DNA of 64,000 nucleotides from Bacteroidota bacterium (GCA_051747965.1 JBNJGS010000001.1:40311-104310); one strand, 5' to 3'; positions 8,212 to 55,110 are shown, counted from the first letter of the stretch. Translations and numbers: made by a program. The notes: generated by a model not told the origin, from the sequence alone.

Positions 8212-9117
8212 TTAAAAAATCAGTTCATTTATTGCATGTATATCTCCAGAGATATTTTCATTTATGCTATCGATATTATCAGATGTCCGGATTCTCTTCT
8301 GAAAAGCCAGGGTATAGATTTCTCCATGATTGAGCGTTTTGTCTTCATCCAGAGATAAAAGATACAGATGCGGCCGATTCTCTTCCCGGCTAACCACAGC
8401 CATTGCCCGGCAATTATTTTCCATGACACTTACAGCATAGGTGCCGTCCGGAGGGATGAGTTTCTCTTCTTCCTCCATTTCAACTGCATGAAAACCCTGC
8501 TTTTTTTTCAAGGGACTGATGTCAGCCTTACCTGTTTTACCCATGACAAGATAAAAATGATCCAGATATGCATTGGCCCGTTGTATATGACCCTCTGCCA
8601 GGGCTTTTCGGATACGTGTTGAACTCACAGCTTCATTTTCGATATCCTGCATGGGTATTTCTTCCACCATAAAATTCTTCGTTTTACTCAATTCATGCAA
8701 ATAATCAAAATTCCCTTCGCGATTATGACCAAAGTAATGATTGAACCCAACGATAATAATTTTTGCATTCAGTTTTCCAAGAAGTATATCGTTGACAAAT
8801 TGTTGTGATGTTGTTTGTGAAAAAGACAGGGTAAACGGGATAATAAAGAGATGATCGATTCCTGTGTTTTCCAGGAGATATTTTTTTTCCCGTTGGGTAT
8901 TGATAAGTTTCAGATCAGCCATTTTATCAGGGAAAAGCACTTTACGCGGATGCGGGTGAAATGTAATCAGAACAGATTCGCCTCTGACCTGTCTGGCTAG
9001 TTGATTCAGTCTGTTCAGAATTGTTTTGTGTCCAATATGAACTCCGTCAAAGGTACCGGTGGTAACAACCGGATTTTTTATTGTGCCAATATCTTCAAAA
9101 TCTGTATGTATCTTCAT
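8212..9117 (-). CDS. ribF: RibF-family FAD synthetase; the C-terminal riboflavin-kinase-like module is divergent
   Basis: 301 aa. The N-terminal FMN adenylyltransferase motifs are intact (GTFDGVHIGH, SSTRIR). The C-terminal module aligns to RFK (GTYAV), but GFHAVE replaces the GFPTAN motif. Confidence 0.8.
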   Translation of the reverse strand: MKIHTDFEDIGTIKNPVVTTGTFDGVHIGHKTILNRLNQLARQVRGESVLITFHPHPRKVLFPDKMADLKLINTQREKKYLLENTGIDHLFIIPFTLSFSQTTSQQFVNDILLGKLNAKIIIVGFNHYFGHNREGNFDYLHELSKTKNFMVEEIPMQDIENEAVSSTRIRKALAEGHIQRANAYLDHFYLVMGKTGKADISPLKKKQGFHAVEMEEEEKLIPPDGTYAVSVMENNCRAMAVVSREENRPHLYLLSLDEDKTLNHGEIYTLAFQKRIRTSDNIDSINENISGDIHAINELIF

Positions 9118-9145: not shown

Positions 9146-9766
9146 CTAATCATTGTGATTGACAAAATAAGCAACTTTTTCCATGCTGGTCACCATATCA
9201 TAATCCTCCACATAAATATGGTCGGGGATGCTAAGCGGAACAGATGTAAAATTCAGTATTCCCTTGATATTGTTTACCACGAGCTGATCGGCTACTTCCT
9301 GTGCATGTTCCGGTGACAATGTCATGATGGCAATGGAAATATCAAGTTCTTTGATCTTTTCTCCAAGTTGGTTGATATGATAGCACCGCACATTGGAGAT
9401 TACCCTGTTGATCTTTTGTTCATCCACATCAAAAGCAGCGGCAATATCAAGTTTGGTGCGTTTGCCGTTAAAGTAGCTGGTGATGGCTTTGCCGAGGTTT
9501 CCCATTCCTATGATTGCTGTATTGATCTTTTTGTTGCCGTCAAGGATTTCGCCAATGCGCTGAATCAGGTCTTCAATAACATAACCTTTTCGTTGAGTTC
9601 CTGAATATCCGATAAGCATGATGTCCCGCCTTACCTGTACCGGTGTAAGGTGCAACTGACTGGCAAGTTCATGCGAGTAAATATGTTCCTTGCCCTTGTC
9701 CAGGTTGCTATAGAGAATGCGTCTGTACTGGCTTAGCCTTTCAACGGATTTTGGTGGTAAATTCAT
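9146..9766 (-). CDS. rex: redox-sensing transcriptional repressor Rex
   Basis: 206 aa. It has an N-terminal winged helix (RLSQYRRIL...SHELASQL) followed by the Rossmann motif IIGMGNLGKAI and ILNFT, which is the Rex family layout. Confidence 0.9.
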   Translation of the reverse strand: MNLPPKSVERLSQYRRILYSNLDKGKEHIYSHELASQLHLTPVQVRRDIMLIGYSGTQRKGYVIEDLIQRIGEILDGNKKINTAIIGMGNLGKAITSYFNGKRTKLDIAAAFDVDEQKINRVISNVRCYHINQLGEKIKELDISIAIMTLSPEHAQEVADQLVVNNIKGILNFTSVPLSIPDHIYVEDYDMVTSMEKVAYFVNHND

Positions 9767-9777
9767 GGTTTCTCAAT

Positions 9778-10896
9778 TTATTTTTTAAAAATAATATAAA
9801 AAGTTGAGCCTTCATCCTTTTTACTTTCCAAATGTATGCTGGCTTTATAGTTGTCAATGATTCTTTTTACAATTGAAAGGCCCAGGCCACTGCCGGAAAT
9901 CTTTTTTGTTTCTTCATTCCGGATACGAACAAACTCCCTGAAAAGCCTTGCCTGGTCATCCTCAGAAATGCCAATTCCTGTATCTTTAACAACAATATGA
10001 ATTTCATGTTCGGTCTGGTAAAGAGAAATGTTCACATTTCCTTCTTTTTTGTTGTATTTGATGGCATTGGAAATAAGGTTATTGAGTACGATTTCCATTT
10101 CTTCCCGGTCGGCGTTCATTTCCAGCTTTTCAGGAAGATCTTTTTGAATGCTGATATCTTTTTGGATGGCATATGGCTGCATGGTAGCGATGGCATCCTC
10201 AACCACTTCAGGGAGATTGATTTTCTCAATGCTTCTTTGTTTTTTCCCTGATTCAAGTTTTGTCAGGTCGAGCAGATCCATGATAAGATTTCGCATATTA
10301 TCCATTCTGTCGAGTGATCGGTTGACCATCTGCATATAATCATTGATGTCATTGCCTGCCTCTTTGTTTTTCATCATCTGCAGATATCCTTCCACTGCAT
10401 TGATTGGTGCTTTCAGCTCATGCGACAGAAGCGACAGAAACTGATAGCGGATTTGCTTTCCCTCTTTGTTCATGCGGGCAGTCATTCGTTTGAGAAACAA
10501 TTGCTTGGCCACATTTTCCAGGGAAGCCCTCAGCTCCTGTGGGGTAAATGGTTTTGGGACAAAGTCGCTGGCCCCTTGCCTGGTGGCTTTTACTGCCACT
10601 TCAAGTGAAGCATAAGATGTAATCATCACCACATAGGATTCAATTTGCTGCTTATTGATGTAATTGAGTACATCCAGGCCCTGAATTCCGGGCAACTTAT
10701 TGTCCAGCAGCACAATATCCGGTGTTTCTTTCTTCAGGATTTCCAGGGCTTCCTCCCCGGTAGCCGCTTCATTCACAGTAAATCCAAACACATCATCCAT
10801 GAAAGGATAATCCAGGGTAAATTTTCTGAGAACACGCTTTACTCCAGCGCGAATCCCGGGTTCATCATCCACAACCAATATTGTAAATTTTTCCAT
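9778..10896 (-). CDS. hybrid receiver-histidine kinase (N-terminal REC, then HisKA + HATPase)
   Basis: 372 aa. The REC domain shows ILVVDDEPGIR...IVLLDNKLPG...VPKPF. The H-box is LSLLSHELKAPINAV, and the G-boxes are DTGIGIS and GSGLGLSIV. Confidence 0.85.
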   Translation of the reverse strand: MEKFTILVVDDEPGIRAGVKRVLRKFTLDYPFMDDVFGFTVNEAATGEEALEILKKETPDIVLLDNKLPGIQGLDVLNYINKQQIESYVVMITSYASLEVAVKATRQGASDFVPKPFTPQELRASLENVAKQLFLKRMTARMNKEGKQIRYQFLSLLSHELKAPINAVEGYLQMMKNKEAGNDINDYMQMVNRSLDRMDNMRNLIMDLLDLTKLESGKKQRSIEKINLPEVVEDAIATMQPYAIQKDISIQKDLPEKLEMNADREEMEIVLNNLISNAIKYNKKEGNVNISLYQTEHEIHIVVKDTGIGISEDDQARLFREFVRIRNEETKKISGSGLGLSIVKRIIDNYKASIHLESKKDEGSTFYIIFKK

Positions 10897-10898
10897 AA

Positions 10899-11291
10899 CT
10901 ATGTAAGGAGTTTGTTGATGACTGAATACAATCTTTCTGTTTCTATACCTTTTTCAAGGTAGGCATCTGCCTTTATCCAGGCCTGATCCTGTTGTTCCTG
11001 AAGTCTGAATGAAATGCCTGTTTCTGCCGCCACGTTGGTAGCAATAACAACAGGGACATCGGGATACCTTGATTTACAACGAAAAGCCAGAACAAATCCG
11101 CTGTCATCGTTTTCCATCATAAGGTCAAAAATGGCCAGATCCGGCCTGACCTGCTTCAGGATGTTCTCGGCTTCTTTCTGACTCTCAGCCGTGATAAGCT
11201 CAAATCCGCTTTTTTCAAGTTTGAATGATGTCTGAAACAAATAATCAGTATCATCATCAGCCAGCAGAATTATTTTCTTTGTTTTCTCCAT
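10899..11291 (-). CDS. stand-alone response-regulator receiver protein (no output domain)
   Basis: 130 aa. It has ILLADDDTD and the phospho-acceptor context LAIFDLMM. No DNA-binding or enzymatic domain follows. Confidence 0.85.
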   Translation of the reverse strand: MEKTKKIILLADDDTDYLFQTSFKLEKSGFELITAESQKEAENILKQVRPDLAIFDLMMENDDSGFVLAFRCKSRYPDVPVVIATNVAAETGISFRLQEQQDQAWIKADAYLEKGIETERLYSVINKLLT

Positions 11292-11296
11292 ATTTT

Positions 11297-13294
11297 TTAT
11301 CCCTCAACTTTTGGATGCCTGGGCAAATCAACTGTAAATGTGGTTCCTGTTTCACCATCGGCGGGATTATCATTGCTTACCAGGGTGATTTTGCCCTTGT
11401 GCATCTTAATAATTCCATAAGTGGTAGGCAAACCCAGACCGGTTCCTTTGCCAATGCCTTTGGTGGTGAAAAAGGGGGTGAATATTTTTTCCCTGATTTC
11501 TTCCGGGATGCCACTGCCTTCATCTGTTATTTCAATTCGTATATTTTCTTCATCACCATTGATGTTAATGTGTATATCACCACCCTCCGGCATAGCTTCC
11601 GTTCCGTTTTTAATCAGATTTGTCAGTGCTTGTATCATCTGTTCTTCATCCAGATAAACCTGAGTATTGTTCAGGTGGTTATGAATTTTTATTCTGACCT
11701 TGTCAGGTATGATAAATGACCTGATGCTTTTCTGTATCAGATCGGTAATGCTTACATTGCTTTGCCTGACCTGATTTTTTCTGGCAAAATTCAGCAGATT
11801 GCCAACAATTTTTTTGCAGCGGGAGGCCTGATCTGCGATCATTTTATAATCTTCATACGCCTCGCTGTTTTCATCAACCTCATCCAGCAGCATATTGCTG
11901 TACATAATAACCACACCCAGGGGATTATTGAGCTCATGGGCTATGCCTGCTGACAACTGACCAAGATGGGCAAGTTTTTCCGACTGTTTGAGCGCCTGTT
12001 GAATGGAAGACAATTTTTCATTTTTTTGATGCAACTCATCAATGGACCGATGCATTTTTTCTATGGTGTAGGGCAAACACATGTCAATTTCTGCAAGGCC
12101 GCGCAAGACCGCAACGGCATGTTCCTCGCAACTGTCGTAACCACAAGCCTGACAATTGAGTCTGTCTTCCGGTTCATTCTTGCCCATTGCCGACCACAAT
12201 GCATATATTTCTTCATTATCGGGCATTTTCACCCGCTGATCATCCGGTGTAAACGTTCTGGTTAGGTCCAGATCCTTAAATCTGTGTATGTATTTCTCCC
12301 AGCTTTTTTGGTCAAGATTGTTCATTTTTTCCTTGACATAGCGGGTAATATGTGCCCTGTTTTCATAGCGCTTTCCGTTTCTGGACATTCCGGGTCCCAT
12401 AATGCAGCCTTCACAGCAAAGCAGCTCCAGGTGATGATCGTTAATCAGGCCATAATCAAATTCCTGTATGGCATCCTTAAAATTCACCCTGCCTTCTGCC
12501 ACCACAATATTTCCTTTAAACAGATTTTCGTGGACATTAATGGTTTGGATGATGCCTCTGCTAATGGGAAAAATGGAACCGCGTCCACCAAAAGGCGGGT
12601 CAAATTCGCTGGCTTTGGTATTTTCAGGTTTGATTTCCTGTGCTTCCAGCATTTCCCTGAATTCTGAAAAAGTCAGGACAGCATCCACTTCATCAGACTC
12701 TTCTTTTTTTGCAACACAGGGACCGATAAAAACAAGTTTGTATTTTTCTCCGTACATTTCTTTCAGCGCTCTTGCCAGAGCCATAACAGGAGACACTACA
12801 GGAGCAAGATTTTCTGTCAGATGGGGATGATATTTTTTGATAAAGTTGACAATTGAGGGACAGTCAGAACTGATGAATCGTCTCTCATCATCAGAAGTCA
12901 GCAAATCTTTGTAACGCAAAGCAACCAGATCTGCACCAAATGAAACCTCGGTAACCATGTCAAACCCCAGTTTTCTTGTCATACCGACAAATTTCCGGTA
13001 ATCGTTGATTTCAGGAAAATCGGCAGGAAAACTTGGTGCCACCATAGCAATAACCGGTTCATGTCGTATGAGCAATTTTTCAGCCATGCTTTCAGATTTC
13101 CTGAAATTTTTGGCTTTTCTGGTACACACACGGATGCAGTTTCCGCAGCCAATGCATCTGTCCTGTATCACTTCTGCCTGACCATTGATGATACGTATTG
13201 CTTTGGCAGGACATTCCCTGACACAGGTGTAACACATTTTACATCTGTCTTTGATGGTGTATACCAGGGGCTTATCTGTCAACAATTCACTCAT
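11297..13294 (-). CDS. HydS-type sensory [FeFe]-hydrogenase-like protein fused to a histidine kinase
   Basis: 665 aa. It starts with two [4Fe-4S] motifs ([23 protein letters not shown]). The H-domain has L1 SSDCPS, L2 GPCVAKKEE and L3 [13 protein letters not shown]. Next comes an exact Cx2Cx4Cx16C motif ([26 protein letters not shown]), then a coiled coil, then HisKA ([12 protein letters not shown]) and HATPase (GTGLGLP). Confidence 0.85.
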
Positions 13295-14970
13295 AGTACA
13301 TTAAATTTATGTTTCAGGTCAGGCTTATCATCCCGTTGAATGTAAGCATTGGCAAAAGGATTGGCCTGCGGTGATTTGGCCTGGGTATTGTCGTCTGATT
13401 TGTAAAGGCTTTTGATCAGCATTTTGGTACGGTTTTCCGTTCTCTCAGAAAGGGGTTGTCCGCCCCCGCCCATGCATCCCAGACTGCAGTTTGACAACTC
13501 CAGGATATCGCAATTGGCTCTGCCCCTGAGAACGTCAAGAATATGCTTTTCAATATTGTGTATACCACTGACAACCTTTGTTTTATATGTTTTTGATCCG
13601 ATTTTGAAGCTGGCTGTTTTTTCCTGCTTCATTACCCGAAGGTCCGGGATTTTATGACGTATCGGCTCTTTGCCCGTTTTCAGGAAATGCATATGTCTGA
13701 AAATCGCCTCGCTCAGTCCTCCGGGCACATGATAGAGACTACCTGAAGCACTGGAGACATGGTAAGGCTGATCAAACCGTTCTTCGTCAATATTGTGGAG
13801 ATCAACACCGGACAATTTCAGCAGGCGCAACAACTCCCGTGTTGTCAGCACTGCATCCACATCCGGGATACCCCTTGTCATATTGTCTGTTCTGGTTGCC
13901 TCTGCTTTTCCGGCTGTACAGGGTGTTACTGAAACGGTAAATGTATCTTCCTGTCTCAATTCTTCTTTTTCGGCATAATCTGTTTTGATAAGCTTGCCCA
14001 GAATTTGCTGCGGGGTCTTCACCGGATTGATAAAAGACAAGGCTTCAGGCATAAATTGCTCCAGGTAATTCACAATGGAGGGGCATGAGCTAATGATGAC
14101 CGGAGACTTTCCGGTTTCGCTGATGTGCCGGGCAGTTTCCATAACAAAAACATCACCTGCGAAGGCAGAATCAAAGACAAAATCAAACCCTGCCTGTTTC
14201 AATCCTGAGATCACAAGGGGAGTGATGTCTGTTCCGGGCTTGAATCCGGCAGCTTCTGCAAGAGTATAACCAATGGCCGGTGCAAGCTGAGCATATATTG
14301 TAATGTTCTTATTGTTGATGGCATCCATCACCGGTGTGATAGCAGATTTCTCTGTAAGTGCACCACTGGGGCAAACAAGTATGCATTGTCCACATGAAAT
14401 GCAGGTGGAGTAATTCAATCCTTTTCCCAGGGCAGTATCAATCCTGGTATTGATGCCTCTGCCTGAAAAATCTATGGATGATGCCTGCACACGCTCATCG
14501 CAAACGCGTATACATCTGCCGCAGAGGATACACTTTGCATTGTCCATGACTATGGCCGGACTGGATTTGTCTTTGTATTGTGATTTTTTGGTTCCGAAAA
14601 ATCGTCTGTCCATAATATTGAGCTCCACAGCAAGGTTCTGTAATTCACAATGCTGATTGTTTTCACAATAAAGACAATCGTCGGGATGATTGGCAAGTAA
14701 AAGTTCCACAATGGTTTTGCGCGCATTGATAACCCGCGGGGAATGGGTAAAGACCTCCATACCTTCTTCAACGGGCTGTGAACAGGAGGGCACCAATTCA
14801 TCACGACCGGAAATTTCGACCACACAAAGTCTGCATGAACCTGTGGGTGTAAATTCATTCAGGTGACAGAGGGTTGGCACTCTGATACCATGTCTTTTCA
14901 GAGCGACGAGAATGGTTTCGCCCTTTTTTCCCTCGAGTTGTTTATTATTTACGTTGAAAAGAATGCTCAT
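13291..14970 (-). CDS. hydA: [FeFe]-hydrogenase large subunit, HydA-like (M3 architecture) with a non-canonical H-cluster pocket
   Basis: 559 aa. It carries a [2Fe-2S] set (C35, C46, C49, C63), a His-ligated cluster (HPDDCLYCENNQHC) and two [4Fe-4S] motifs (CILCGRCIRVC, CISCGQCILVCP). The H-domain has L1 IISSCPS, L2 TPCTAGKAE and L3 ELSNCSLGCMGGGGQP. Confidence 0.85.
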   Translation of the reverse strand: MSILFNVNNKQLEGKKGETILVALKRHGIRVPTLCHLNEFTPTGSCRLCVVEISGRDELVPSCSQPVEEGMEVFTHSPRVINARKTIVELLLANHPDDCLYCENNQHCELQNLAVELNIMDRRFFGTKKSQYKDKSSPAIVMDNAKCILCGRCIRVCDERVQASSIDFSGRGINTRIDTALGKGLNYSTCISCGQCILVCPSGALTEKSAITPVMDAINNKNITIYAQLAPAIGYTLAEAAGFKPGTDITPLVISGLKQAGFDFVFDSAFAGDVFVMETARHISETGKSPVIISSCPSIVNYLEQFMPEALSFINPVKTPQQILGKLIKTDYAEKEELRQEDTFTVSVTPCTAGKAEATRTDNMTRGIPDVDAVLTTRELLRLLKLSGVDLHNIDEERFDQPYHVSSASGSLYHVPGGLSEAIFRHMHFLKTGKEPIRHKIPDLRVMKQEKTASFKIGSKTYKTKVVSGIHNIEKHILDVLRGRANCDILELSNCSLGCMGGGGQPLSERTENRTKMLIKSLYKSDDNTQAKSPQANPFANAYIQRDDKPDLKHKFNVL

Positions 14971-14975
14971 GGTAT

Positions 14976-16907
14976 CTAATCTGTCTTGATCGCGTTAAAC
15001 TTACAATTATCATAACACAGTCCGCAGCCTATGCACTTTTCCTTAACAATAAAGTACGGATGTCTGGCCACCCCGATGATAGCATCAGCAGGGCACTTGC
15101 GTGCACAGATGGTGCAACCGGTACATAAATCCACATCTATGGTGTAGGATTTGAGTTCCTTGCATACGCCTGCTTTGCATTTGCGGTCAAAGATATGTTC
15201 CTCATATTCATTTCGAAAATGTTCAACGGTGCTCAAAACCGTATTTGCTGCATTTTGCCCCAGGCCGCAGAGGGAAGTTTCTTTCATAACTTTGGCAAGG
15301 CTTTCAAGCTGCATAACACCTTTGAACCGTTCCAGTGATTTGTGTCCGGTTTCATCATACGGCTTGCGGGTAATCCGGGTCAGGATATCAAGCATACGCT
15401 GGGAGCCTTCTCTGCAGGGAATACATTTTCCACAGGATTCCTGCTGGATAAAACGCATAAAATACCTGGCAAGGCTGATGATACAATTGCTTTCATCAAG
15501 CACAAGAAAACTTCCGCTTCCCATTTTAAGGCCGGCTTTTTCCATGGCAGCAAAATCCATGGGGATATCCAAATTGCTGGTATTTATCACACCACCTGAT
15601 GGTCCGCCAATATGGACAGCTTTTAATTCTTTATCACCGGGAACACCGCCACAGGTTTGGATTATATCACGCACTTTGGTACCCATTTCAACTTCCAGGA
15701 CGCCGGTTTTGGCAATTTTCCCGCTCACGGACAGTAGTTTTGTACCCGGACTGTTTTCTGTACCGGTTTTTTTGAATTTTTCTCCCCCCTGCCTTATAAT
15801 GTATGGCACATTGGCCAGTGTTTCCAGGTTGTTAACTACAGTGGGTTTACCAAACAGCCCTCTTTCCGCCGGATATGGTGGTTTGGGCTGAGGCATTCCC
15901 CTTTTGCCTTCCAGGCTGGCAATCAAAGCTGTTTCTTCACCACACACATGAGCCCCCGGACCTTCTTTAATGTCAATATACAACTCAAAACCACTGTTGA
16001 AAATATTATCTCCAAGCAACTCATACTCATAGGCCTGCTTCAGTGCGGTTTTCAGACGCTGTATGGCAAGTTTATACTGATTCCGGATGTAAATGATTGC
16101 CCGGTTTGCCTGTATGGCATAAGCGGCAATTGCCACACCCTCAATTACCTGGTGTGGATCACCTTCTACCAGGTGTCTGTCCACAAAAGCCCCCGGATCA
16201 CTCTCATCAGCATTACAGATGATATATCTGGAGGCTTCAGATTGTTCAAGTGCTGCCAGCCACTTGTCGCCGGTGAGATAGGCAGATCCGCTGCGCCCTT
16301 TAAGTCCAGCAGACTTAACAATCCTGCATACTTCCTCTGATGTATGGGCTGTAATTGCTTTAGCAAATGCCCGGTATCCTTCAGAAATGATGTATTCATC
16401 AATATTATCAGGAGATATTATTCCCGTTCGCCGGGTGAGATGTTTTTTCTGTGTATTGAAAAAGCTGAGATTGTTCAGGTATGGCACATCATCCCATTCC
16501 GCAAGATTAGCCTGGGGATATTGTCCCAGATTGCCGTAGTCCGGCAGGAAATTGTTTGTTACCGCATCCATCAATTCTGCCACCTTCTCTTCAGTAATTC
16601 TTGCAAAACTGATACGGGTTCTGCCGGGAATCTGCACATCAACAATGGGCTCAGCAGAACACAACCCGATGCAACCTACTTCAATAACTTCTGCATCCAG
16701 ATTTTCTTCCTTAATATGCTCAATTATCTTATTCTTTGTTTTGTCTGCACCCGCGATAACACCACAGCTTCCCATACCAACATAAATCACCGTTTTCCGG
16801 ACAAAATCCCGGCGTATGGTGGCAATGTTTCTATCCAGCACAGCATTGCCTTTCGGGGGATTGGGCCCCATAAGAAGAAGCGGGAGATGTTCTTTAATCA
16901 AATTCAT
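14976..16907 (-). CDS. hydB: NuoF-like flavoprotein subunit of trimeric hydrogenase (HydB-like)
   Basis: 643 aa. An N-terminal thioredoxin-like region has Cys (GMGSCG, VGCIGLCSAEP). The NuoF core shows CNADESDPGAF, GAHVCGEETALIASLEG, KPPYPAERGLFGKPTVVNNLET and ESCGKCIPCREG. The C-terminus has two ferredoxin motifs (CTGCTICARKCP, CIGCGLCYDNC). Confidence 0.85.
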   Translation of the reverse strand: MNLIKEHLPLLLMGPNPPKGNAVLDRNIATIRRDFVRKTVIYVGMGSCGVIAGADKTKNKIIEHIKEENLDAEVIEVGCIGLCSAEPIVDVQIPGRTRISFARITEEKVAELMDAVTNNFLPDYGNLGQYPQANLAEWDDVPYLNNLSFFNTQKKHLTRRTGIISPDNIDEYIISEGYRAFAKAITAHTSEEVCRIVKSAGLKGRSGSAYLTGDKWLAALEQSEASRYIICNADESDPGAFVDRHLVEGDPHQVIEGVAIAAYAIQANRAIIYIRNQYKLAIQRLKTALKQAYEYELLGDNIFNSGFELYIDIKEGPGAHVCGEETALIASLEGKRGMPQPKPPYPAERGLFGKPTVVNNLETLANVPYIIRQGGEKFKKTGTENSPGTKLLSVSGKIAKTGVLEVEMGTKVRDIIQTCGGVPGDKELKAVHIGGPSGGVINTSNLDIPMDFAAMEKAGLKMGSGSFLVLDESNCIISLARYFMRFIQQESCGKCIPCREGSQRMLDILTRITRKPYDETGHKSLERFKGVMQLESLAKVMKETSLCGLGQNAANTVLSTVEHFRNEYEEHIFDRKCKAGVCKELKSYTIDVDLCTGCTICARKCPADAIIGVARHPYFIVKEKCIGCGLCYDNCKFNAIKTD

Positions 16908-16916
16908 AGGCTGTGC

Positions 16917-17375
16917 TTATTTGTTGTTTAATGTCTTGATTATCTGGTCAAGTTTTTGTTTGCTCAGGCGTGTATGGTAAGTATCATTGACCTGAATAAC
17001 AGGCGCCAGCGCACAGGCTCCCAGGCAACTCACCTCTTCAATGCTGATTTTTCCGTTTTTGGATACGCCGTTATCCATGATATTCAATTTGGAAATGAGC
17101 GTATCACGCAGGCTGTCCGCTCCCATCACATGACAGGCTGAACCAGCACACATGCGGATATGAACAGGGGCATTTTCACGAAACCTGAACTGATTATAAA
17201 AAGTAGCAATGCCATATATCCGGCTTCCCGGAATACTGAGAGCCTTTGTTATTTCCCTGATGTGCTCTTCAGTGATGTATCCCTGCTCATTTTGCACCTC
17301 CTGTAATATCGGAATCAGGTCCTTTTGCGCCTTATCGGGATACTTATAAATAATATGTTTTATGCCTGCTGCCAT
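16917..17375 (-). CDS. hydC: NuoE-like [2Fe-2S] subunit of trimeric hydrogenase (HydC-like)
   Basis: NuoE pattern: YPDKAQKDLIPILQEVQNEQGYI, GIATFYNQF, MCAGSACHVMG and VSCLGACALAP. The track ORF begins at TTG 17414. I prefer ATG 17375 (MAAGIKHII...), because the extra 13 codons fall in AT-rich DNA that carries palindromes and a promoter-like box. Confidence 0.8.
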   Translation of the reverse strand: MAAGIKHIIYKYPDKAQKDLIPILQEVQNEQGYITEEHIREITKALSIPGSRIYGIATFYNQFRFRENAPVHIRMCAGSACHVMGADSLRDTLISKLNIMDNGVSKNGKISIEEVSCLGACALAPVIQVNDTYHTRLSKQKLDQIIKTLNNK

Positions 17376-17403: not shown

Positions 17404-17415
17404 TTTGTTAACAAA
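17404..17415. promoter_or_regulatory. perfect 12-bp palindrome TTTGTTAACAAA (fused Rex-like half sites)
   Basis: Read directly from the sequence. It consists of overlapping TTGTTAA/TTAACAA half-site sequences with no spacer. Confidence 0.35.
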
Positions 17416-17421
17416 TAAACA

Positions 17422-17439
17422 CTGTTAAGATATTAACAA
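17422..17439. promoter_or_regulatory. candidate Rex operator
   Basis: CTGTTAAGATATTAACAA matches the TTGTTAAnnnnTTAACAA Rex box at 17 of 18 defined-plus-spacer positions, with perfect inverted arms TGTTAA/TTAACA. It lies in the hydC / sigma-factor divergent intergenic region. Confidence 0.55.
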
Positions 17440-17563: not shown

Positions 17564-18061
17564 ATGACAAAACTATCAACACAGATTACAGAACATTCAG
17601 AACATTTAAAGTATTATGCTTTAAGTTTAACCAACGACAGTGAGACGGCCAATGACTTAATGCAGGAAACAATGTTTAAGGCATTGAAAAATGAGGATCG
17701 GTATGTTCACGATAAGAATCTGCGCTCATGGTTGTTCACAATAATGAAAAATACCTTCATCAATCAGTACCGAAGGGAGAAATCCAGGCAAAAAATGGTG
17801 GCAGAAGTAAAGGATGTAAGTTCATATGCTTCAGCGAAAGTAGAAAATGAGACAGGTCTTGATTTGTATGTCATGAGATCTGATATTCACAAAGCATTAT
17901 TGAAGTTGAATTCAAAATACAGAGTACCTTTCATTCTGTTTTACAAGGGTTTTAAATACACAGAAATTGCCAAAAGACTTAATCTGCCACTCGGAACAAT
18001 CAAAAGCCGCATCTATTTTGCCCGCAAAATCCTGATGGAAGAACTCTCAGGACTGATCTAG
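17564..18061 (+). CDS. ECF-type RNA polymerase sigma-70 factor
   Basis: 165 aa. Region 2 is LMQETMFKALKN...SWLFTIMKNTFINQYRR. Region 4 is FKYTEIAKRLNLPLGTIKSRIYFARKIL. No adjacent anti-sigma gene is present. Confidence 0.85.
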   Translation: MTKLSTQITEHSEHLKYYALSLTNDSETANDLMQETMFKALKNEDRYVHDKNLRSWLFTIMKNTFINQYRREKSRQKMVAEVKDVSSYASAKVENETGLDLYVMRSDIHKALLKLNSKYRVPFILFYKGFKYTEIAKRLNLPLGTIKSRIYFARKILMEELSGLI

Positions 18062-28863: not shown

Positions 28864-29796
28864 TCACTTTTTCAGTTTTCTGAGGTAGAAATTGTGTTCC
28901 CCAAAATTCAATTTCAGAAGCTTCTTGTCATTGATGAGCTGTTCCACAAGCTGCATATCTGCATTGTTCTTGTTGAGCAATTCCCGGAGTGCATCCTCAC
29001 GCATGGGATGTACCGCGGTAATACTGAGAATATCTGATTCAGCATCTCCGCTGGCGGCAAAAGCATTGCCTTCATACCCAATCAACAACTCAGCGCGTTT
29101 TACTTTTTCAGAAAACAATGCCCAGGCCGTTTGCAGGGCTTTTTCTCCGGCCGGTTTAACATCCGGATCAGCAGGCGGACGTGTGGGAATGGCGATATAT
29201 GCCACATCAGGATTTATTTCACCCAGAAAATCAGCCATCTTACGCAATTCAGCTTCCTTGTCATTGTATCCATCTATCAGCATACTTTCTGTCATAAGAT
29301 AGCCCTCATAGGCAGACGCAAAATCACGCACACCCTGTTTTACGGTTTCGAAATCCAGGTTTTTATGCGGGCGATCCACTTTACGCCACATCTCTTCTGT
29401 TGCAGCATCTACTTTGACTGATACGCGATCAGTTTTGAGCAAAGCCTTCCTCACCTGCTCATCCCACAACAATGATGCGTTGGAAATCACTGCTACGGGC
29501 ACATCCAGCTTTTTCAGGCCGGTAATCAATTCTTCCAGACGGGCATCCAGGGCAGGCTCCCCATCGGGAACGAGGGTAAGATAATCCACTTTATCAGCAG
29601 TATTAAGCCGCTCTTTCACCTGCCGGACAATATCTTCCGGGTCATAAAATGCCTCACGTTCTGTCTGCATGCGAATGGCATTCCCAAGCTGACAATATCT
29701 GCAGGCGTAGGTACATATTTTCGGCGGTATGTGGTTGATTCCAATACTTTGTCCCAGCCGCCTCGATGGAACAGGACCAAATATTATCTGAGCCAT
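28864..29796 (-). CDS. radical SAM protein (unknown substrate)
   Basis: 310 aa. The N-terminus is FGPVPSRRLGQSIGIN followed by the CX3CX2C motif (CTYACRYC). It is the last gene of a tightly packed 5-gene operon. Confidence 0.8.
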   Translation of the reverse strand: MAQIIFGPVPSRRLGQSIGINHIPPKICTYACRYCQLGNAIRMQTEREAFYDPEDIVRQVKERLNTADKVDYLTLVPDGEPALDARLEELITGLKKLDVPVAVISNASLLWDEQVRKALLKTDRVSVKVDAATEEMWRKVDRPHKNLDFETVKQGVRDFASAYEGYLMTESMLIDGYNDKEAELRKMADFLGEINPDVAYIAIPTRPPADPDVKPAGEKALQTAWALFSEKVKRAELLIGYEGNAFAASGDAESDILSITAVHPMREDALRELLNKNNADMQLVEQLINDKKLLKLNFGEHNFYLRKLKK

Positions 29797-29803
29797 AAAA
29801 CCA

Positions 29804-30118
29804 TTATTTTACTTTTTTCAGTGCTTCGCGAATGCTGATTTGTCCGACTTGAGATTTCATCTTCACCCCTGCCTGTTTCAGTACATCTGAAGCTTTGGGG
29901 CCAAAAGGACCACTGGTGACAACCATATCTGCATCTGCCTGAATCACGCTCTGTGCAGCCTGAATGCCAACACCATGTCCGGCATTTTTTTCCGTGTTCT
30001 CAATAAAATGCAGACTGTCATCAGCATCATCGTACACGACAAAACCTGCAGCCCGTCCAAAACGTTCGTCCAAAACAGCATCAAAAGATGCCTTATTTGC
30101 TGGAAATACAATTTTCAT
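29804..30118 (-). CDS. NifB/NifX-family (dinitrogenase FeMo-cofactor-binding-like) small protein
   Basis: 104 aa. ERFGRAAGFVVYD and MVVTSGPFGPKA...LKQAGVK show the typical small NifX-like fold pattern. Confidence 0.75.
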   Translation of the reverse strand: MKIVFPANKASFDAVLDERFGRAAGFVVYDDADDSLHFIENTEKNAGHGVGIQAAQSVIQADADMVVTSGPFGPKASDVLKQAGVKMKSQVGQISIREALKKVK

Positions 30119-30128
30119 AACTTTTTGT

Positions 30129-31004
30129 TTATTTTACTGTGTTTACAATATCCTGCCATATATTTTCAAAAATGGCAGTTAAATCACTGCGTCCGGTTTC
30201 CGGGACAGTCAAGCCTTCACTAACAGCCCTTGAAAATACCGGATCATATGGCAATTCCCGTGTATATCCAAGGTTGTTTTCTTCGGCAAATGCTTTGATT
30301 TTCCTGCGATAATCAGGATTAATATCTGCTTTGTTCAGAACTATCATGGCTGGAATTTCCATTTTCTGCAGCAATTCATTGACTCTTTTCATATCGTGCC
30401 AGCCGGAAGTGGTGGGTTCGGTCACCACCAATGCCATAGAAGCACCGGACATGGCAGCAATTACAGGACATCCAATCCCCGGCGGGCCATCTGTAAGGAT
30501 GATATCCCGGCCTTCCCTTTCAGCAATCACACGACTGCGGTTTTTTACTTCGGTTACCAGTTTTCCGGAATTATCTGCTCCGATGTTTAGTTTTGCGTGT
30601 ACCATAGGACTGCTTTGTCTGGTAAAAGCCTCGAACAGGATACCGGCTGCCTGGGTTTCCAGGTGCAGGGCATTGTGGGGGCAGACATGGGTACACAAAC
30701 CGCAACCTTCACATTCTATGGGATTAATTTTCAGTTCTGCATTCTCAACAGATATGGCATCAAAATGGCAATGATCAATGCAAATGCGGCAACGGATACA
30801 TTTTTCCTGATTGACAACAGCCAATTTCCCACCATAAAAAATTTCTTCTCTGGTATTGTCCGGAGCCATCAGCAAATGCATATCGGCAGCATCCACATCG
30901 GCATCCGCCAGTACAATATCATTGGCAGCAAGCCATGCCAGCCCGGCGGTTATGGATGTCTTTCCACATCCACCTTTTCCGGATATTACAACAACTTCTT
31001 TCAT
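30129..31004 (-). CDS. MinD/ParA-type P-loop ATPase with inserted 2x[4Fe-4S] ferredoxin domain
   Basis: 291 aa. It has a deviant Walker A (SGKGGCGKTS), the inserts CIRCRICIDHC and CEGCGLCTHVCP, and DGPPGIGCP. Confidence 0.85.
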   Translation of the reverse strand: MKEVVVISGKGGCGKTSITAGLAWLAANDIVLADADVDAADMHLLMAPDNTREEIFYGGKLAVVNQEKCIRCRICIDHCHFDAISVENAELKINPIECEGCGLCTHVCPHNALHLETQAAGILFEAFTRQSSPMVHAKLNIGADNSGKLVTEVKNRSRVIAEREGRDIILTDGPPGIGCPVIAAMSGASMALVVTEPTTSGWHDMKRVNELLQKMEIPAMIVLNKADINPDYRRKIKAFAEENNLGYTRELPYDPVFSRAVSEGLTVPETGRSDLTAIFENIWQDIVNTVK

Positions 31005-31891
31005 ACATCCATCCGTTTTTTCAGATTATCCGTCAGTGTATTCCAGGCATCGGCAATCTCTTCATTCAGGTTATATACAAGCTCTCCACGTGAGTAAGCT
31101 TCTGCAATGGCCTGACTCTGAGGTATACGGCCCAGAATTTCCAGACCTTCTTTTTGACAATACTCTTCTATCAACTCATCCCTGCCGCTACCTGCTTTAT
31201 TGATCACAACACCTGTGGGTCTGCCAAGCTTTCGGACAGTTTCTACAGCAAGCCCAAGATCGTGGAGTCCAAAAGGTGTTGGTTCAGTTACCATCAGCAC
31301 ATAATCTGCATCTTTGGTTACCTCCATCATGGGACAAGACGTTCCGGGCGGTGCATCAATAAGAATCAGGCTGTCATCCACTGCAGCTTTTTCCATTTTG
31401 TCCAGTGCTTCGGAAATCAAGGGGACAGCACTGGGCTGGCCAACTTCCAGACGGTTTTCTATCAGACTGAGATTTTCCTGTACCGGTTTGAAATACCGGG
31501 ATTCGCCCATCCTGTGTTTTTTCATTGGCAGGGCATCAGCCGGGCAAAGGGTGGAACAGGCATGACAGGAATGACAAAGGTCCGGAAATATCAAAACCCT
31601 GCTACCTAAAAACGCGATGGCATTGAACTCGCAGACCTGAGAGCATTTGTTGCAGAGCGTACATTTTTGCTCCTCCCAAACAGGTACAAGACGGTGCTCA
31701 TCCTGAACAAGTATTGTTTTTGCATCACTAAAAAACAGGGAGGCATTGGGTTCCTCTACATCCAGATCGCTGAGTAAAACCTGATTCGCAAAAGCAGGCA
31801 AATCTTCAGCCAGCCGGGCAGCAAGGTTTACTGACAAACTGGTTTTACCCGTTCCGCCTTTACCACTGGCAATGGCAATTTTATATCTCAT
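31001..31891 (-). CDS. MinD/ParA-type P-loop ATPase with inserted 2x[4Fe-4S] ferredoxin domain (paralog)
   Basis: 296 aa. It has SGKGGTGKTS, CTLCNKCSQVCE, CHSCHACSTLCP and DAPPGTSCP. There is a 4-nt overlap with the downstream paralog. Confidence 0.85.
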   Translation of the reverse strand: MRYKIAIASGKGGTGKTSLSVNLAARLAEDLPAFANQVLLSDLDVEEPNASLFFSDAKTILVQDEHRLVPVWEEQKCTLCNKCSQVCEFNAIAFLGSRVLIFPDLCHSCHACSTLCPADALPMKKHRMGESRYFKPVQENLSLIENRLEVGQPSAVPLISEALDKMEKAAVDDSLILIDAPPGTSCPMMEVTKDADYVLMVTEPTPFGLHDLGLAVETVRKLGRPTGVVINKAGSGRDELIEEYCQKEGLEILGRIPQSQAIAEAYSRGELVYNLNEEIADAWNTLTDNLKKRMDV

Positions 31892-53656: not shown

Positions 53657-54445
53657 ATGGCTATGAAACACATGAAATTATTACTACTACCCATTTTGCT
53701 GGTGGGAATTATTTCCTGCGAATCAGGAGATAAAACCGAGAAGGAAAAAACATCACATTCAGAGAAAGAAACATCTTCCATCAGTGTAAAAGCTGATGAT
53801 GTGCCGGACTCCCCTTATGCCTTTGGTGATTTGCCTTATTCTGCAGATGCTTTGGAACCCCATATTGATGCAGAAATCATGAGATTGCATTATGGCAAGC
53901 ATCACAAAGGATATTACAAGAAATTTTTGAATGCCATAGAAGGCAGCTCAATTGAAGGAGAGGAATTGTCGGTAATTTTTTCGAAGATAGACAATCACGA
54001 TGCTTCGGTGCGCAACAATGCAGGAGGTTATTACAATCACTGGGTATTTTGGCACAACATGTCACCTGAAGGAGGTGGTGAGCCCGGATCCGCATTAAAA
54101 GCAGCCATTAGCGATGCTTTTGGCAGTATGGACAATTTTTTCTCTGAGTTCAACACCGCAGCAAAGAGTCAGTTTGGCAGTGGCTGGGCCTGGTTGATAA
54201 TGGATGAAAACGGTGAGTTAATGATTACCAACACGCCAAATCAGGACAATCCCCTCATGAACACAAGTGATTATCAGGGATATCCTTTGTTGGCCATTGA
54301 TGTCTGGGAACACGCATATTATCTTCAGTATAAGAATGAGCGTGGCAGTTATATTGAAGCTTTTCGTCATGTAATTGACTGGGAAGAAGTAAGCAGACGT
54401 TATCAGATGGCACTGGAAGGCAAGCATTACATACCACACAAATAA
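53657..54445 (+). CDS. Fe/Mn-family superoxide dismutase with lipoprotein signal and linker (exported)
   Basis: 262 aa. The signal and lipobox read [17 protein letters not shown], followed by a Ser/Glu/Lys linker. The SOD core shows [28 protein letters not shown] and DVWEHAYY. Confidence 0.85.
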
Positions 54446-54480
54446 AATATTGTTACATTTTAAAAAATACAGGAGAAATT

Positions 54481-55110
54481 ATGTTACACGATAAGATTAA
54501 AGAAGTAGAGTTTCCCGAACTGGGATATGATTACAATGCACTGGAGCCCAATATAGATGCACAGACAATGGAGTTGCATTACACCAAGCATCACAAAGGC
54601 TACTACACCAAATTGCAGAATGCAGTAGAGAACACGGATACCGCAGATAAAAGCCTTGCCGTGGTATTTAAAAACATCAGTAATTATCCGGCAGGTGTGA
54701 GAAACAATGGTGGCGGACATTACAACCACAGTTTATTCTGGAGTGTAATGAGTCCAGATGGTGGTGGTAAACCTTCAGGCAAGCTAATGGATGCCATTGA
54801 GTCGGCTTTTGGTTCTTTTGACAGTTTCAAAGAGAAGTTTGAAACCGCAGCCAAGGGACGATTTGGTTCCGGCTGGGCCTGGCTGGTGGTAAAAGACAAC
54901 AAGCAACTGGCAGTTACTGACACGCCAAACCAGGACAACCCGCTAATGGACACAGTTGATACAAAAGGGATGCCTGTATTAGCACTTGATGTCTGGGAGC
55001 ATGCCTATTACTTAAAATACCAGAATCGTCGTCCGGATTACATTTCAGCTTTCTGGAATGTAGTTGACTGGGATGCAGTATCAAAGCGATATGAAAAAGC
55101 CATATCATGA
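54481..55110 (+). CDS. Fe/Mn-family superoxide dismutase (cytoplasmic)
   Basis: 209 aa. The core shows [28 protein letters not shown] and DVWEHAYY. There is no signal peptide. Confidence 0.9.

Follow-up and report, generated by a model that had tools for sequence, protein, structure and literature searches.

A HydA-like subunit with a rebuilt [2Fe] pocket in a Rex-linked HydABC-type operon of Bacteroidales

In a 64-kb window of DNA from a Bacteroidota bacterium (the whole stretch analysed, to which our gene coordinates refer), a tightly packed minus-strand cluster encodes a HydABC-type complex whose HydA-like subunit, here called HydA*, has an altered active-site pocket. Its gene, hydA* (13291-14970, minus strand), is the third of the cluster and an intact open reading frame (ORF) for 559 amino acids (aa) with an M3-type architecture in Pfam. 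Judged by alignment, the proton relay and the distal-iron side of the pocket for the [2Fe] subcluster are rebuilt with small or hydroxyl residues (C299S/T, M353T/G, K358G/A, M497S/T, A272G, F417Y, G418H, E279T and S319N, in the numbering of CpI). We favour the reading, with a probability of roughly 0.43, that HydA* still binds [2Fe] and acts as a slow, sensor-like hydrogenase module, because the pocket seems to be held open by the small and hydroxyl residues, its proximal side has not changed, and a sensor that binds the cofactor has matching substitutions. The retention of the operon, the sensor kinase and the Rex boxes also supports it. When this reading is combined with the other leading model, in which only the cubane of the H-cluster is bound, it becomes quite probable that HydA* is not a conventional high-turnover H2-evolving subunit.

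Four pairwise phmmer alignments (with CpI and with the HydA proteins of T. kivui, A. woodii and T. maritima) and three multiple MAFFT alignments give one and the same mapping of residues, which rules out an alignment artefact, and none of them places a cysteine at the relay position or a lysine at that of K358. As the sequence-only reading of this DNA had stated, the L1 motif is IISSCPS (aa 292-298, 14077-14097, minus strand like the other motifs of HydA*; IISSCPSI with the next residue), with Ser295 (codon TCA, 14088-14086) at the position of C299 and two base changes away from a cysteine codon (TGY). The ligand C300 is kept as C296, and just downstream of the motif W303 has become I299. L2 reads TPCTAGKAE (aa 349-357, 13900-13926), where the ligand C355 is present as C351 and E361 as E357, with T349 at M353 and G354 at K358. 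Both replacements had been recognised, but the lysine had been described as shifted. There is no indel between C355 and E361, and K355 is the counterpart of K359, which normal enzymes conserve (all operon HydAs examined have it, as do 124 of 131 diverse representatives); K358 has simply been lost. The segment YHVPGGLSEA (aa 413-422, 13705-13734) carries Y413 at the pocket position F417, H414 at G418 beside the pocket, L419 at V423 and S420 at M424. The earlier alignment of GGLSEA with GGVMEA, and the exchange of Met for Ser seen in it, were right, but the methionine is M424 and not M497. The latter lies in L3, which had been called canonical and reads ELSNCSLGCMGGGGQP (aa 491-506, 13453-13500): where CpI has EVMAC, from M497 to the ligand C499, HydA* has ELSNC, with Ser493. 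The ligands C499 and C503 are found as C495 and C499, H500 and G501 have become S496 and L497, and GGGQP is kept. Further changes in the pocket are I268S and A272G, and the CpI proton pathway is also lost beyond C299 (E279T, E282H, R286T, S319N); on the proximal-iron side, A230, P231, P324 and Q325 are unchanged. Ala232 does stand at the position of S232, as noted before, but APA for APS is hardly a deviation, given that the HydA proteins of T. kivui, A. woodii and T. maritima all have APA. The core observation of the sequence-only reading is thus largely right.

By its sequence affinities, HydA* is phylogenetically group-A-derived, a derivative of the catalytic subunit of group A3 (the HydABC or Bfu type). 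Its Pfam domains are Fer2_4, NADH-G_4Fe-4S_3 (the NuoG-type His/Cys [4Fe-4S] domain), two 4Fe-4S domains and Fe_hyd_lg_C, which make up the A3 order of [2Fe-2S], His-ligated [4Fe-4S], two [4Fe-4S] and the H-cluster domain (H-domain). The 16 accessory-cluster ligands and the four H-cluster cysteines, 20 ligands in all, are kept in HydA* and in 13 of 13 members of the clade described below. The partner genes are those of group A3 as well, a NuoF-like HydB with C-terminal 2x[4Fe-4S] and a NuoE-like HydC, so that Pfam and gene order bear out the full M3 accessory-cluster complement and the NuoE/NuoF-like partners claimed earlier. In the PDB the closest sequence is T. kivui HydA1 (8a6t_A, E = 3.5e-128), followed by A. 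woodii, T. maritima and then CpI; an AlphaFold2 model, with a predicted local distance difference test score of about 90 in the H-domain, confirms the fold and has the same 8a6t_A as its top Foldseek match. With T. kivui HydA1 (8a6t) and the A. woodii (7q4v) and T. maritima (7p5h) subunits HydA* shares the M3 order, the iron-sulfur (Fe-S) ligands, the NuoE/NuoF-like partners and APA, and it differs from them by C299S, W303I, M353T, K358G and M497S. A proton pathway of the CpI type is missing, unlike in T. kivui-type A3 enzymes, and no C-terminal Fe_hyd_SSU domain (PF02256) was detected in HydA* or in the related protein clusters P0001-P0013, though most relatives from P0014 on have one. The A3 forms of L1 (TSCCPxW with the relay Cys299) and L2 (MPCxxKxxE with Lys358) are absent, and that of L3 (ExMxCxxGCxxGGGQP) is kept in its cysteines and GGGQP but has lost M497. 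The protein falls below the NCBIfam cut-offs for NF040763, 'group A6' (536 bits versus 765), and TIGR02512, 'group A' (326.5 versus 405.95), and the earlier label 'catalytic-type' is not supported. Two origins by exchange with sensor genes were rejected: gene conversion of L1 from the adjoining hydS (both read SxCPSIVN), with 42 of 111 nucleotides (nt) identical and no blastn match, and a swap with a sensory H-domain, as the H-domain of HydA* matches group A far better and is 23% identical to that of the operon HydS. Its top matches are group A HydA proteins, and it has no sequence affiliation with groups C or D.

The likeness to sensors lies in the pocket. Groups C and D are without the group-A proton-pathway residues, and M497 and M353 are Ser and Gly in TmHydS and Leu and Ser in TamHydS (PMC8163306). 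HydA* resembles both TmHydS (group C) and TamHydS (group D) in lacking the relay cysteine and the rest of the group-A pathway and in having M353 and M497 exchanged, which is the pocket expected of a HydS-type protein (PMC8163306); because TmHydS carries M353G and M497S, the M353G/T and M497S/T of the clade converge on its pocket. TamHydS, whose specific activity is about 0.1 umol H2 per mg per min, has a pathway of its own, formed by E252, E289, S249 and D265 (PMC10407848). Unlike HydA*, the sensory HydS enzymes keep K358, and they have M2-type N-termini, a C-terminal 4-Cys domain (Cx2Cx4Cx16C) and a PAS, kinase or phosphatase output, whereas HydA* has an M3 N-terminus and occupies the HydABC subunit position. 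A Pfam scan of HydA* returned no FeS (PF04060), PAS or kinase domain; such features sit on the next gene, hydS-HK (11297-13294, minus strand), whose start overlaps the hydA* stop by 4 nt and which encodes an H-domain sensor with a 4-Cys FeS domain and a HisKA/HATPase histidine kinase. This HydS-HK has Asp144 at the position of C299 (ISSDCP), an aspartate invariant in 65 loci, and its KK pair (K358/K359) is intact in 65 of 65. In CpI, C299D keeps 30-80% of the activity, and C299S/A and E279A/Q leave less than 1% (PMC6226526), so that the earlier remark that the kinase has the more activity-compatible residue is correct at the sequence level. An extra cysteine is present in L3 of HydS-HK (ELLCCEGC) in the 65 loci, and HydS-HK varies less between species than does the HydA encoded before it.

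The altered subunit is kept by purifying selection. Relative to L088, a 97%-identical relative, the ratio of nonsynonymous to synonymous substitution rates (dN/dS) is 0.072 for hydA*, 0.065 for hydB, 0.070 for hydC and 0.061 for the UDP-glucose dehydrogenase gene. One could suppose that hydA* is a decaying pseudogene, or that its peculiarities stem from the assembly or the alignment, since the protein does not reach the curated family cut-offs and locus L005 has a more degraded relative, but we consider this most improbable: the ORF is intact, its dN/dS of 0.07 equals that of housekeeping neighbours, the same state recurs in 13 clusters from independent samples and assemblies, and the four pairwise and three multiple alignments agree. 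Relaxed decay is likewise refuted by this dN/dS together with the constrained, clade-wide nature of the replacements. Only S/T is found at positions 299 and 497 and only A/G at 358, position 353 is G or T in all members of the clade but one (P0013, with Asn), and G272 and Y417 are invariant, as are the bridging C503, the other H-cluster cysteines, A230, P231, P324 and Q325; GG and GGGQP are kept in most members. The replacements are also concentrated in the pocket. If a clade-specific replacement is a position at least 85% conserved in canonical HydAs yet changed in the clade, then 6 of 14 [2Fe]-pocket positions (268, 272, 299, 353, 358, 497) have one versus 21 of 518 other positions (Fisher p = 2.2e-5); the list of 14 is what we take to be that of Knörzer et al. 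2012. None of the 41 canonical operon HydAs deviates at C299, K358 or M497, whereas each of the 13 clade members has other residues at all three, so that their joint loss is not due to chance. At comparable divergence of HydS, HydA identity is 43.7 +/- 1.7% between the clade and other operons and 52.5% among the others, whereas HydB hardly differs (51.3% and 53.1%), which places an acceleration of HydA alone on the stem of the clade. Within the clade, conservation is 62.5% in the H-domain, 79.9% in the Fe-S domain and 43.5% in the C-terminal tail; fully canonical enzymes show no such difference between the H-domain (72.9%) and the Fe-S domain (73.1%).

A search of 5.8 billion protein clusters retrieved the clade as P0001-P0013, which are 53-97% identical to HydA* and come from metagenome-assembled genomes (MAGs) of Bacteroidales/Bacteroidota, with a sharp break after them: from P0014 on, the matches are ordinary 574-aa HydAs with at most 49% identity. 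HydA* and P0001-P0012 share S/T299, G/T353, A/G358 with K359, S/T497, T279 and mostly N319, and P0013 has this pattern with the exception of its Asn at 353. The survey proposed earlier thus places the state in a narrow Bacteroidales clade within group A, one that is reproducible across independent samples and has just one representative among 1.84 billion proteins clustered at 50% identity. Clade members with 75% and 63% identity have the same gene order, into the flanking genes. With the HydS kinase as the query, a genome scan gave more than 575 matching stretches, of which the best 80 are nearly all from Bacteroidota MAGs and carry this operon, in full on every contig of sufficient length. 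The operon is thereby known from at least 80 species, most of them with a HydA of canonical type. Over 65 operons, the window included, HydA keeps C299 in 41 (we call fully canonical those with E279/E282/R286/S319 and C299/M353/K358/M497) and has S, A, D, H, N or V at 299 in 15, these with K or R at 358 (Ala in L064) and with M497 kept (Leu in two); six belong to the clade of HydA*, and three to a second one, clade2 (L030, L031 and L046), with E299, S/V358, V319 and A324. Further afield, 27 of 107 non-clade relatives have no Cys at 299, and among the 131 diverse M3 representatives nearest to HydA*, 44 are without C299 and 28 have neither K nor R at 358. These losses show that deviant HydBC-linked HydAs are common in metagenomes. 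In 24 of the 131, L1 reads TSCSP, so that Ser takes the place of the ligand C300, as it does in A. woodii HydA1 (7q4v).

If HydA* is the slow, sensor-like module that we favour, it would bind the [4Fe-4S]-[2Fe] cofactor with the help of maturases that the co-encoded HydS sensor should need as well, and turn H2 over at about 1% or less of the rate of the prototypical enzyme. Under Rex control, HydA*BC would be a low-flux or regulatory redox module for NADH, ferredoxin and H2, rather than a high-flux bifurcating hydrogenase, a role that we propose because turnover of H2 is predicted to be slow; HydB would have co-evolved with HydA*, its glycine-rich loop becoming GRSGSA. To our knowledge, the loss of K358 has no precedent in any characterised hydrogenase, and it is the chief argument that HydA* may hold no [2Fe] at all. 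The equivalent residue of CrHydA1, K228, is extremely well conserved and its variants cannot assemble the H-cluster (PMC9516953), so that a protein without it should not take up [2Fe]. Several other points weigh against our favoured reading. The adjoining HydS sensor keeps K358 while HydA* has lost it, and no signalling output domain is attached to HydA*. No hydE/F/G and no second hydrogenase were found among the 35 ORFs scanned in the window. The most divergent member of the clade (P0013, locus L005, 3225-7127, from Mono Lake sediment) has kept hydCBA-rex-ribF and has neither hydS-HK nor the receiver genes, its HydB is without the C-terminal ferredoxin domain, and at the end of its L3 GSRIQ stands in place of GGGQP; losing the sensor genes, this Fe-S domain and GGGQP suggests that the complex can do without an H-cluster.

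In the other leading model, which we hold to be a real but somewhat doubtful possibility, HydA* would bind the [4Fe-4S]H cubane and no [2Fe], and serve as an electron-transfer or scaffold subunit, as does HylA, or NuoG in complex I, with HydA*BC working as an NAD(H)/ferredoxin oxidoreductase or as a donor to an unknown acceptor, without any H2 chemistry. K358 is gone in 13 of 13 clade members when K228 variants are unable to assemble the H-cluster (PMC9516953), the entire proton pathway is lost, constraint on the H-domain and the C-terminal tail is weaker than on the Fe-S domain, and Fe_hyd_SSU is undetectable. L005 has a degraded GGGQP and no H2-sensor genes, yet keeps hydCBA-rex, and the flavin or nucleotide loop of HydB is altered in every K358-less lineage found. 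There is also a precedent in HylA, a HydA homologue without H-cluster motifs that is part of HylABC-FdhF2 (PMC6085437) and, like HydA*, has been kept in a HydBC-type flavoprotein complex, HylA itself being without hydrogenase chemistry. But HylA has lost the L1-L3 cysteines and is linked to formate dehydrogenase, whereas HydA* keeps the four H-cluster cysteines, and no formate dehydrogenase gene was found in the operon or the 64-kb window. Moreover, a site that had given up [2Fe] would hardly be expected to keep its four cysteines, including the bridging C503, and A230, P231, P324 and Q325 invariant, nor GG and GGGQP in most members; the pocket positions have stayed small or hydroxyl, with neither drift nor bulky filling, and the changes of M353 to G and M497 to S match TmHydS, which binds the cofactor (PMC8163306). 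The H2-sensor kinase is still translationally coupled to hydA*, and electron transfer from NADH to ferredoxin would by itself be thermodynamically uphill, so that a sink would still be needed.

At the other extreme, HydA* might be a fully competent catalytic subtype, a bifurcating hydrogenase of normal flux with a new proton path, in which Ser/Thr299, water and the polar Y413, H414, S420 and S493 would conduct protons and the distal CN would be held by Lys355, moved into the gap left at 354. We regard this as unlikely. Purifying selection is indeed strong, HydB and HydC are intact with all their clusters, Rex control is what one expects of an enzyme that disposes of NADH, and the proton pathway is not universal, since group D uses a different one (PMC10407848). 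The frequency of non-Cys299 proteins (27 of 107 and 44 of 131) and the absence of E279 in 24 of 41 C299-bearing operon HydAs suggest that the relay is not under strong selection in HydBC-linked complexes, whose turnover may not be limited by H-cluster chemistry. However, C299S and E279A/Q each leave less than 1% activity in CpI (PMC6226526), and five relay residues are gone together in HydA*. K358, M353 and M497 have also been replaced jointly, K359 is not shifted into register by any indel and is conserved in normal enzymes for another role, and the H-domain evolves faster than the partner proteins. The positions altered in HydA* are those of the CpI C299S/A and E279A/Q and CrHydA1 K228 variants, but the laboratory variants are single crippling changes, whereas those of HydA* are combined, natural, conserved and under purifying selection. 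As between the two alternatives that had been put forward from the sequence, we found no positive support for a distinct catalytic subtype and favour a complex that is not a conventional H2-evolving bifurcating enzyme, because of the loss of the relay and K358, the HydS-like M353 and M497 positions, the fast H-domain and the changed HydB loop.

This last change shows that the remodelling may extend beyond HydA*. HydB (hydB, 14976-16907, minus strand; 643 aa) is a NuoF-like flavoprotein with N- and C-terminal Fe-S domains, whose Pfam domains are Complex1_51K, NADH_4Fe-4S and two Fer4, with every conserved Cys and His kept and Bfu-type B subunits as top PDB matches. Its glycine-rich loop for flavin mononucleotide and NADH, GLKGRSGSAYLTGDKW (aa 201-216, 16260-16307, minus strand), reads GRSGSAYLTG where canonical operons have GLRGRGGGGFPTGxKW and solved homologues GLRGRGGAGFPTG, and in a second motif MGSGG has become MGSGS (15510-15524). 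From its sequence, flavin or nucleotide binding is possibly altered. The RSGS form of the loop is present in every locus with a K358-less HydA (the clade of HydA*, clade2, L064 and L091), and also in L021 and L040, whose HydA keeps K or R at 358; this correlation suggests that the function of the whole complex has shifted, and not just that of the H-domain. K358-less HydAs have thus appeared in at least four operon lineages, each with an RSGS-type HydB, which fits a repeatable evolutionary route better than one-off decay. If HydA* binds no [2Fe], a stepwise series is visible in the Bacteroidales operons, from canonical through non-Cys299 and K358-less HydAs to the sensor-less L005. A further possibility, improbable in our view, is that the enlarged, hydroxyl-rich distal pocket without its lysine anchor and the co-evolved HydB loop define a new functional class derived from HydABC. 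Its H-cluster could be a variant for whose assembly and function the 'essential' lysine is not needed, e.g. with a differently oriented or ligated distal iron, or its terminal site could bind a substrate or cofactor other than H2 and [2Fe].

Clade2 is a second, independent degenerate HydA clade in the same operon position (L030 8279-9976, L031 8277-9980, L046 8278-9975 and L048 1653-3350), and with L048 included it has Glu299, S/V/A358, V319, A324 and N/R325. In L030, L031 and L046 there is, some 6-7 kb upstream of the HydA of the operon, another HydA of canonical type (593 aa in complete copies), and also upstream a divergently transcribed H-domain sensor with a SpoIIE-like phosphatase. The K358-less HydA of L091 (3850-5499; F299, A358; P0140) belongs to the same operon type, which is directly followed there by a TM1266-like gene and a HydG-like gene with radical-SAM and BATS domains (10738-11499). 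These maturase-like genes are not decisive for whether such a HydA holds [2Fe], because the sensor alone would explain them. Among the relatives, P0121 is a predicted protein of 4122 aa with seven separate HydA-like stretches (825 bits in total), which could be a multi-H-domain giant or a mis-called fusion.

Upstream of hydC (16917-17375, minus strand; a NuoE-like [2Fe-2S] subunit) stand two adjacent Rex-operator-like palindromes, TTGTTAA-N4-TTAACAA (17405-17439), some 30-65 nt before its ATG. The motif has three matches in the window versus 0.55 expected by chance, and no enrichment of the Rex consensus TTGTGAA-N4-TTCACAA was seen there. Its position upstream of hydC is conserved in most of the related loci checked, i.e. 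in clade loci and several canonical operons, with a perfect copy in L088. Since the TTG at 17414 proposed by the ORF tool falls inside these boxes, the ATG at 17375 is the more likely start of hydC. With the palindromes kept, the operon seems to have remained under the control of the NADH/NAD+ ratio.

It is generally held that nearly every H-cluster needs K358 and C299 to be assembled and to work. HydA* is a natural protein under purifying selection that has neither of them, nor M353, M497 or the proton pathway, and that stands in an intact HydABC operon beside an H2-sensor kinase. Should it bind [2Fe], it would be an example of a rebuilt second coordination sphere and a natural scaffold in which to study catalytic bias, inhibitor tolerance and the insertion of the cofactor without the lysine; should it not, it would record the stepwise conversion of a bifurcating hydrogenase into another Fe-S flavoprotein complex. 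On the practical side, homology-based counts of 'group A3 hydrogenases' in metagenomes will over-count H2 producers, because 44 of the 131 nearest M3 HydAs are without C299 and 28 without K/R358. In the literature searched we found no natural HydABC subunit described with C299S or without K358, and a search for K228N/K358N variants returned unrelated papers alone. The nearest account is that of BfuABC with the group C3 histidine-kinase sensor 'BfuT' in Hydrogenedentota (PMC11406978), an operon of the same kind, with an A3 hydrogenase and an H-domain/histidine-kinase sensor. The variation reported there is C300 to Ser (the fifth position of P1) and not the loss of C299, K358 or M497, and the present operon, from Bacteroidota, differs in having in addition two receivers, rex and ribF.

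The order of the cluster is hydC-hydB-hydA-hydS (histidine kinase)-receiver-receiver/kinase hybrid-rex-ribF, with the NuoE-like hydC preceding the NuoF-like hydB and 5 nt between hydB and hydA*. After hydS-HK come, all on the minus strand, a stand-alone response-regulator receiver (10899-11291; Pfam, syntenic in related loci), a hybrid receiver-histidine kinase (9778-10896; Pfam and synteny), rex (9146-9766), of the NADH/NAD+-sensing repressor family with Put_DNA-bind_N and CoA_binding in Pfam and likewise syntenic, and a ribF-like flavin adenine dinucleotide synthetase gene (8212-9117), the last conserved gene of the cluster. On the other side, an extracytoplasmic function (ECF)-type sigma-70 gene (17564-18061) is divergent from hydC, as it is in the clade loci L001, L003, L005 and L088; this arrangement was not seen in the canonical locus L006. 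Elsewhere in the window, a radical-SAM ORF of 310 aa (28864-29796) has a Pfam Radical_SAM match alone and no BATS domain, and is adjoined by two MinD/ParA-like ATPases with ferredoxin-type 4Fe-4S domains (28864-31891 for the group). Two tandem Fe/Mn superoxide dismutase genes (53657-55110), the first with an N-terminal extension of about 50 aa, are worth mentioning in a host that carries oxygen-sensitive hydrogenase-type proteins.

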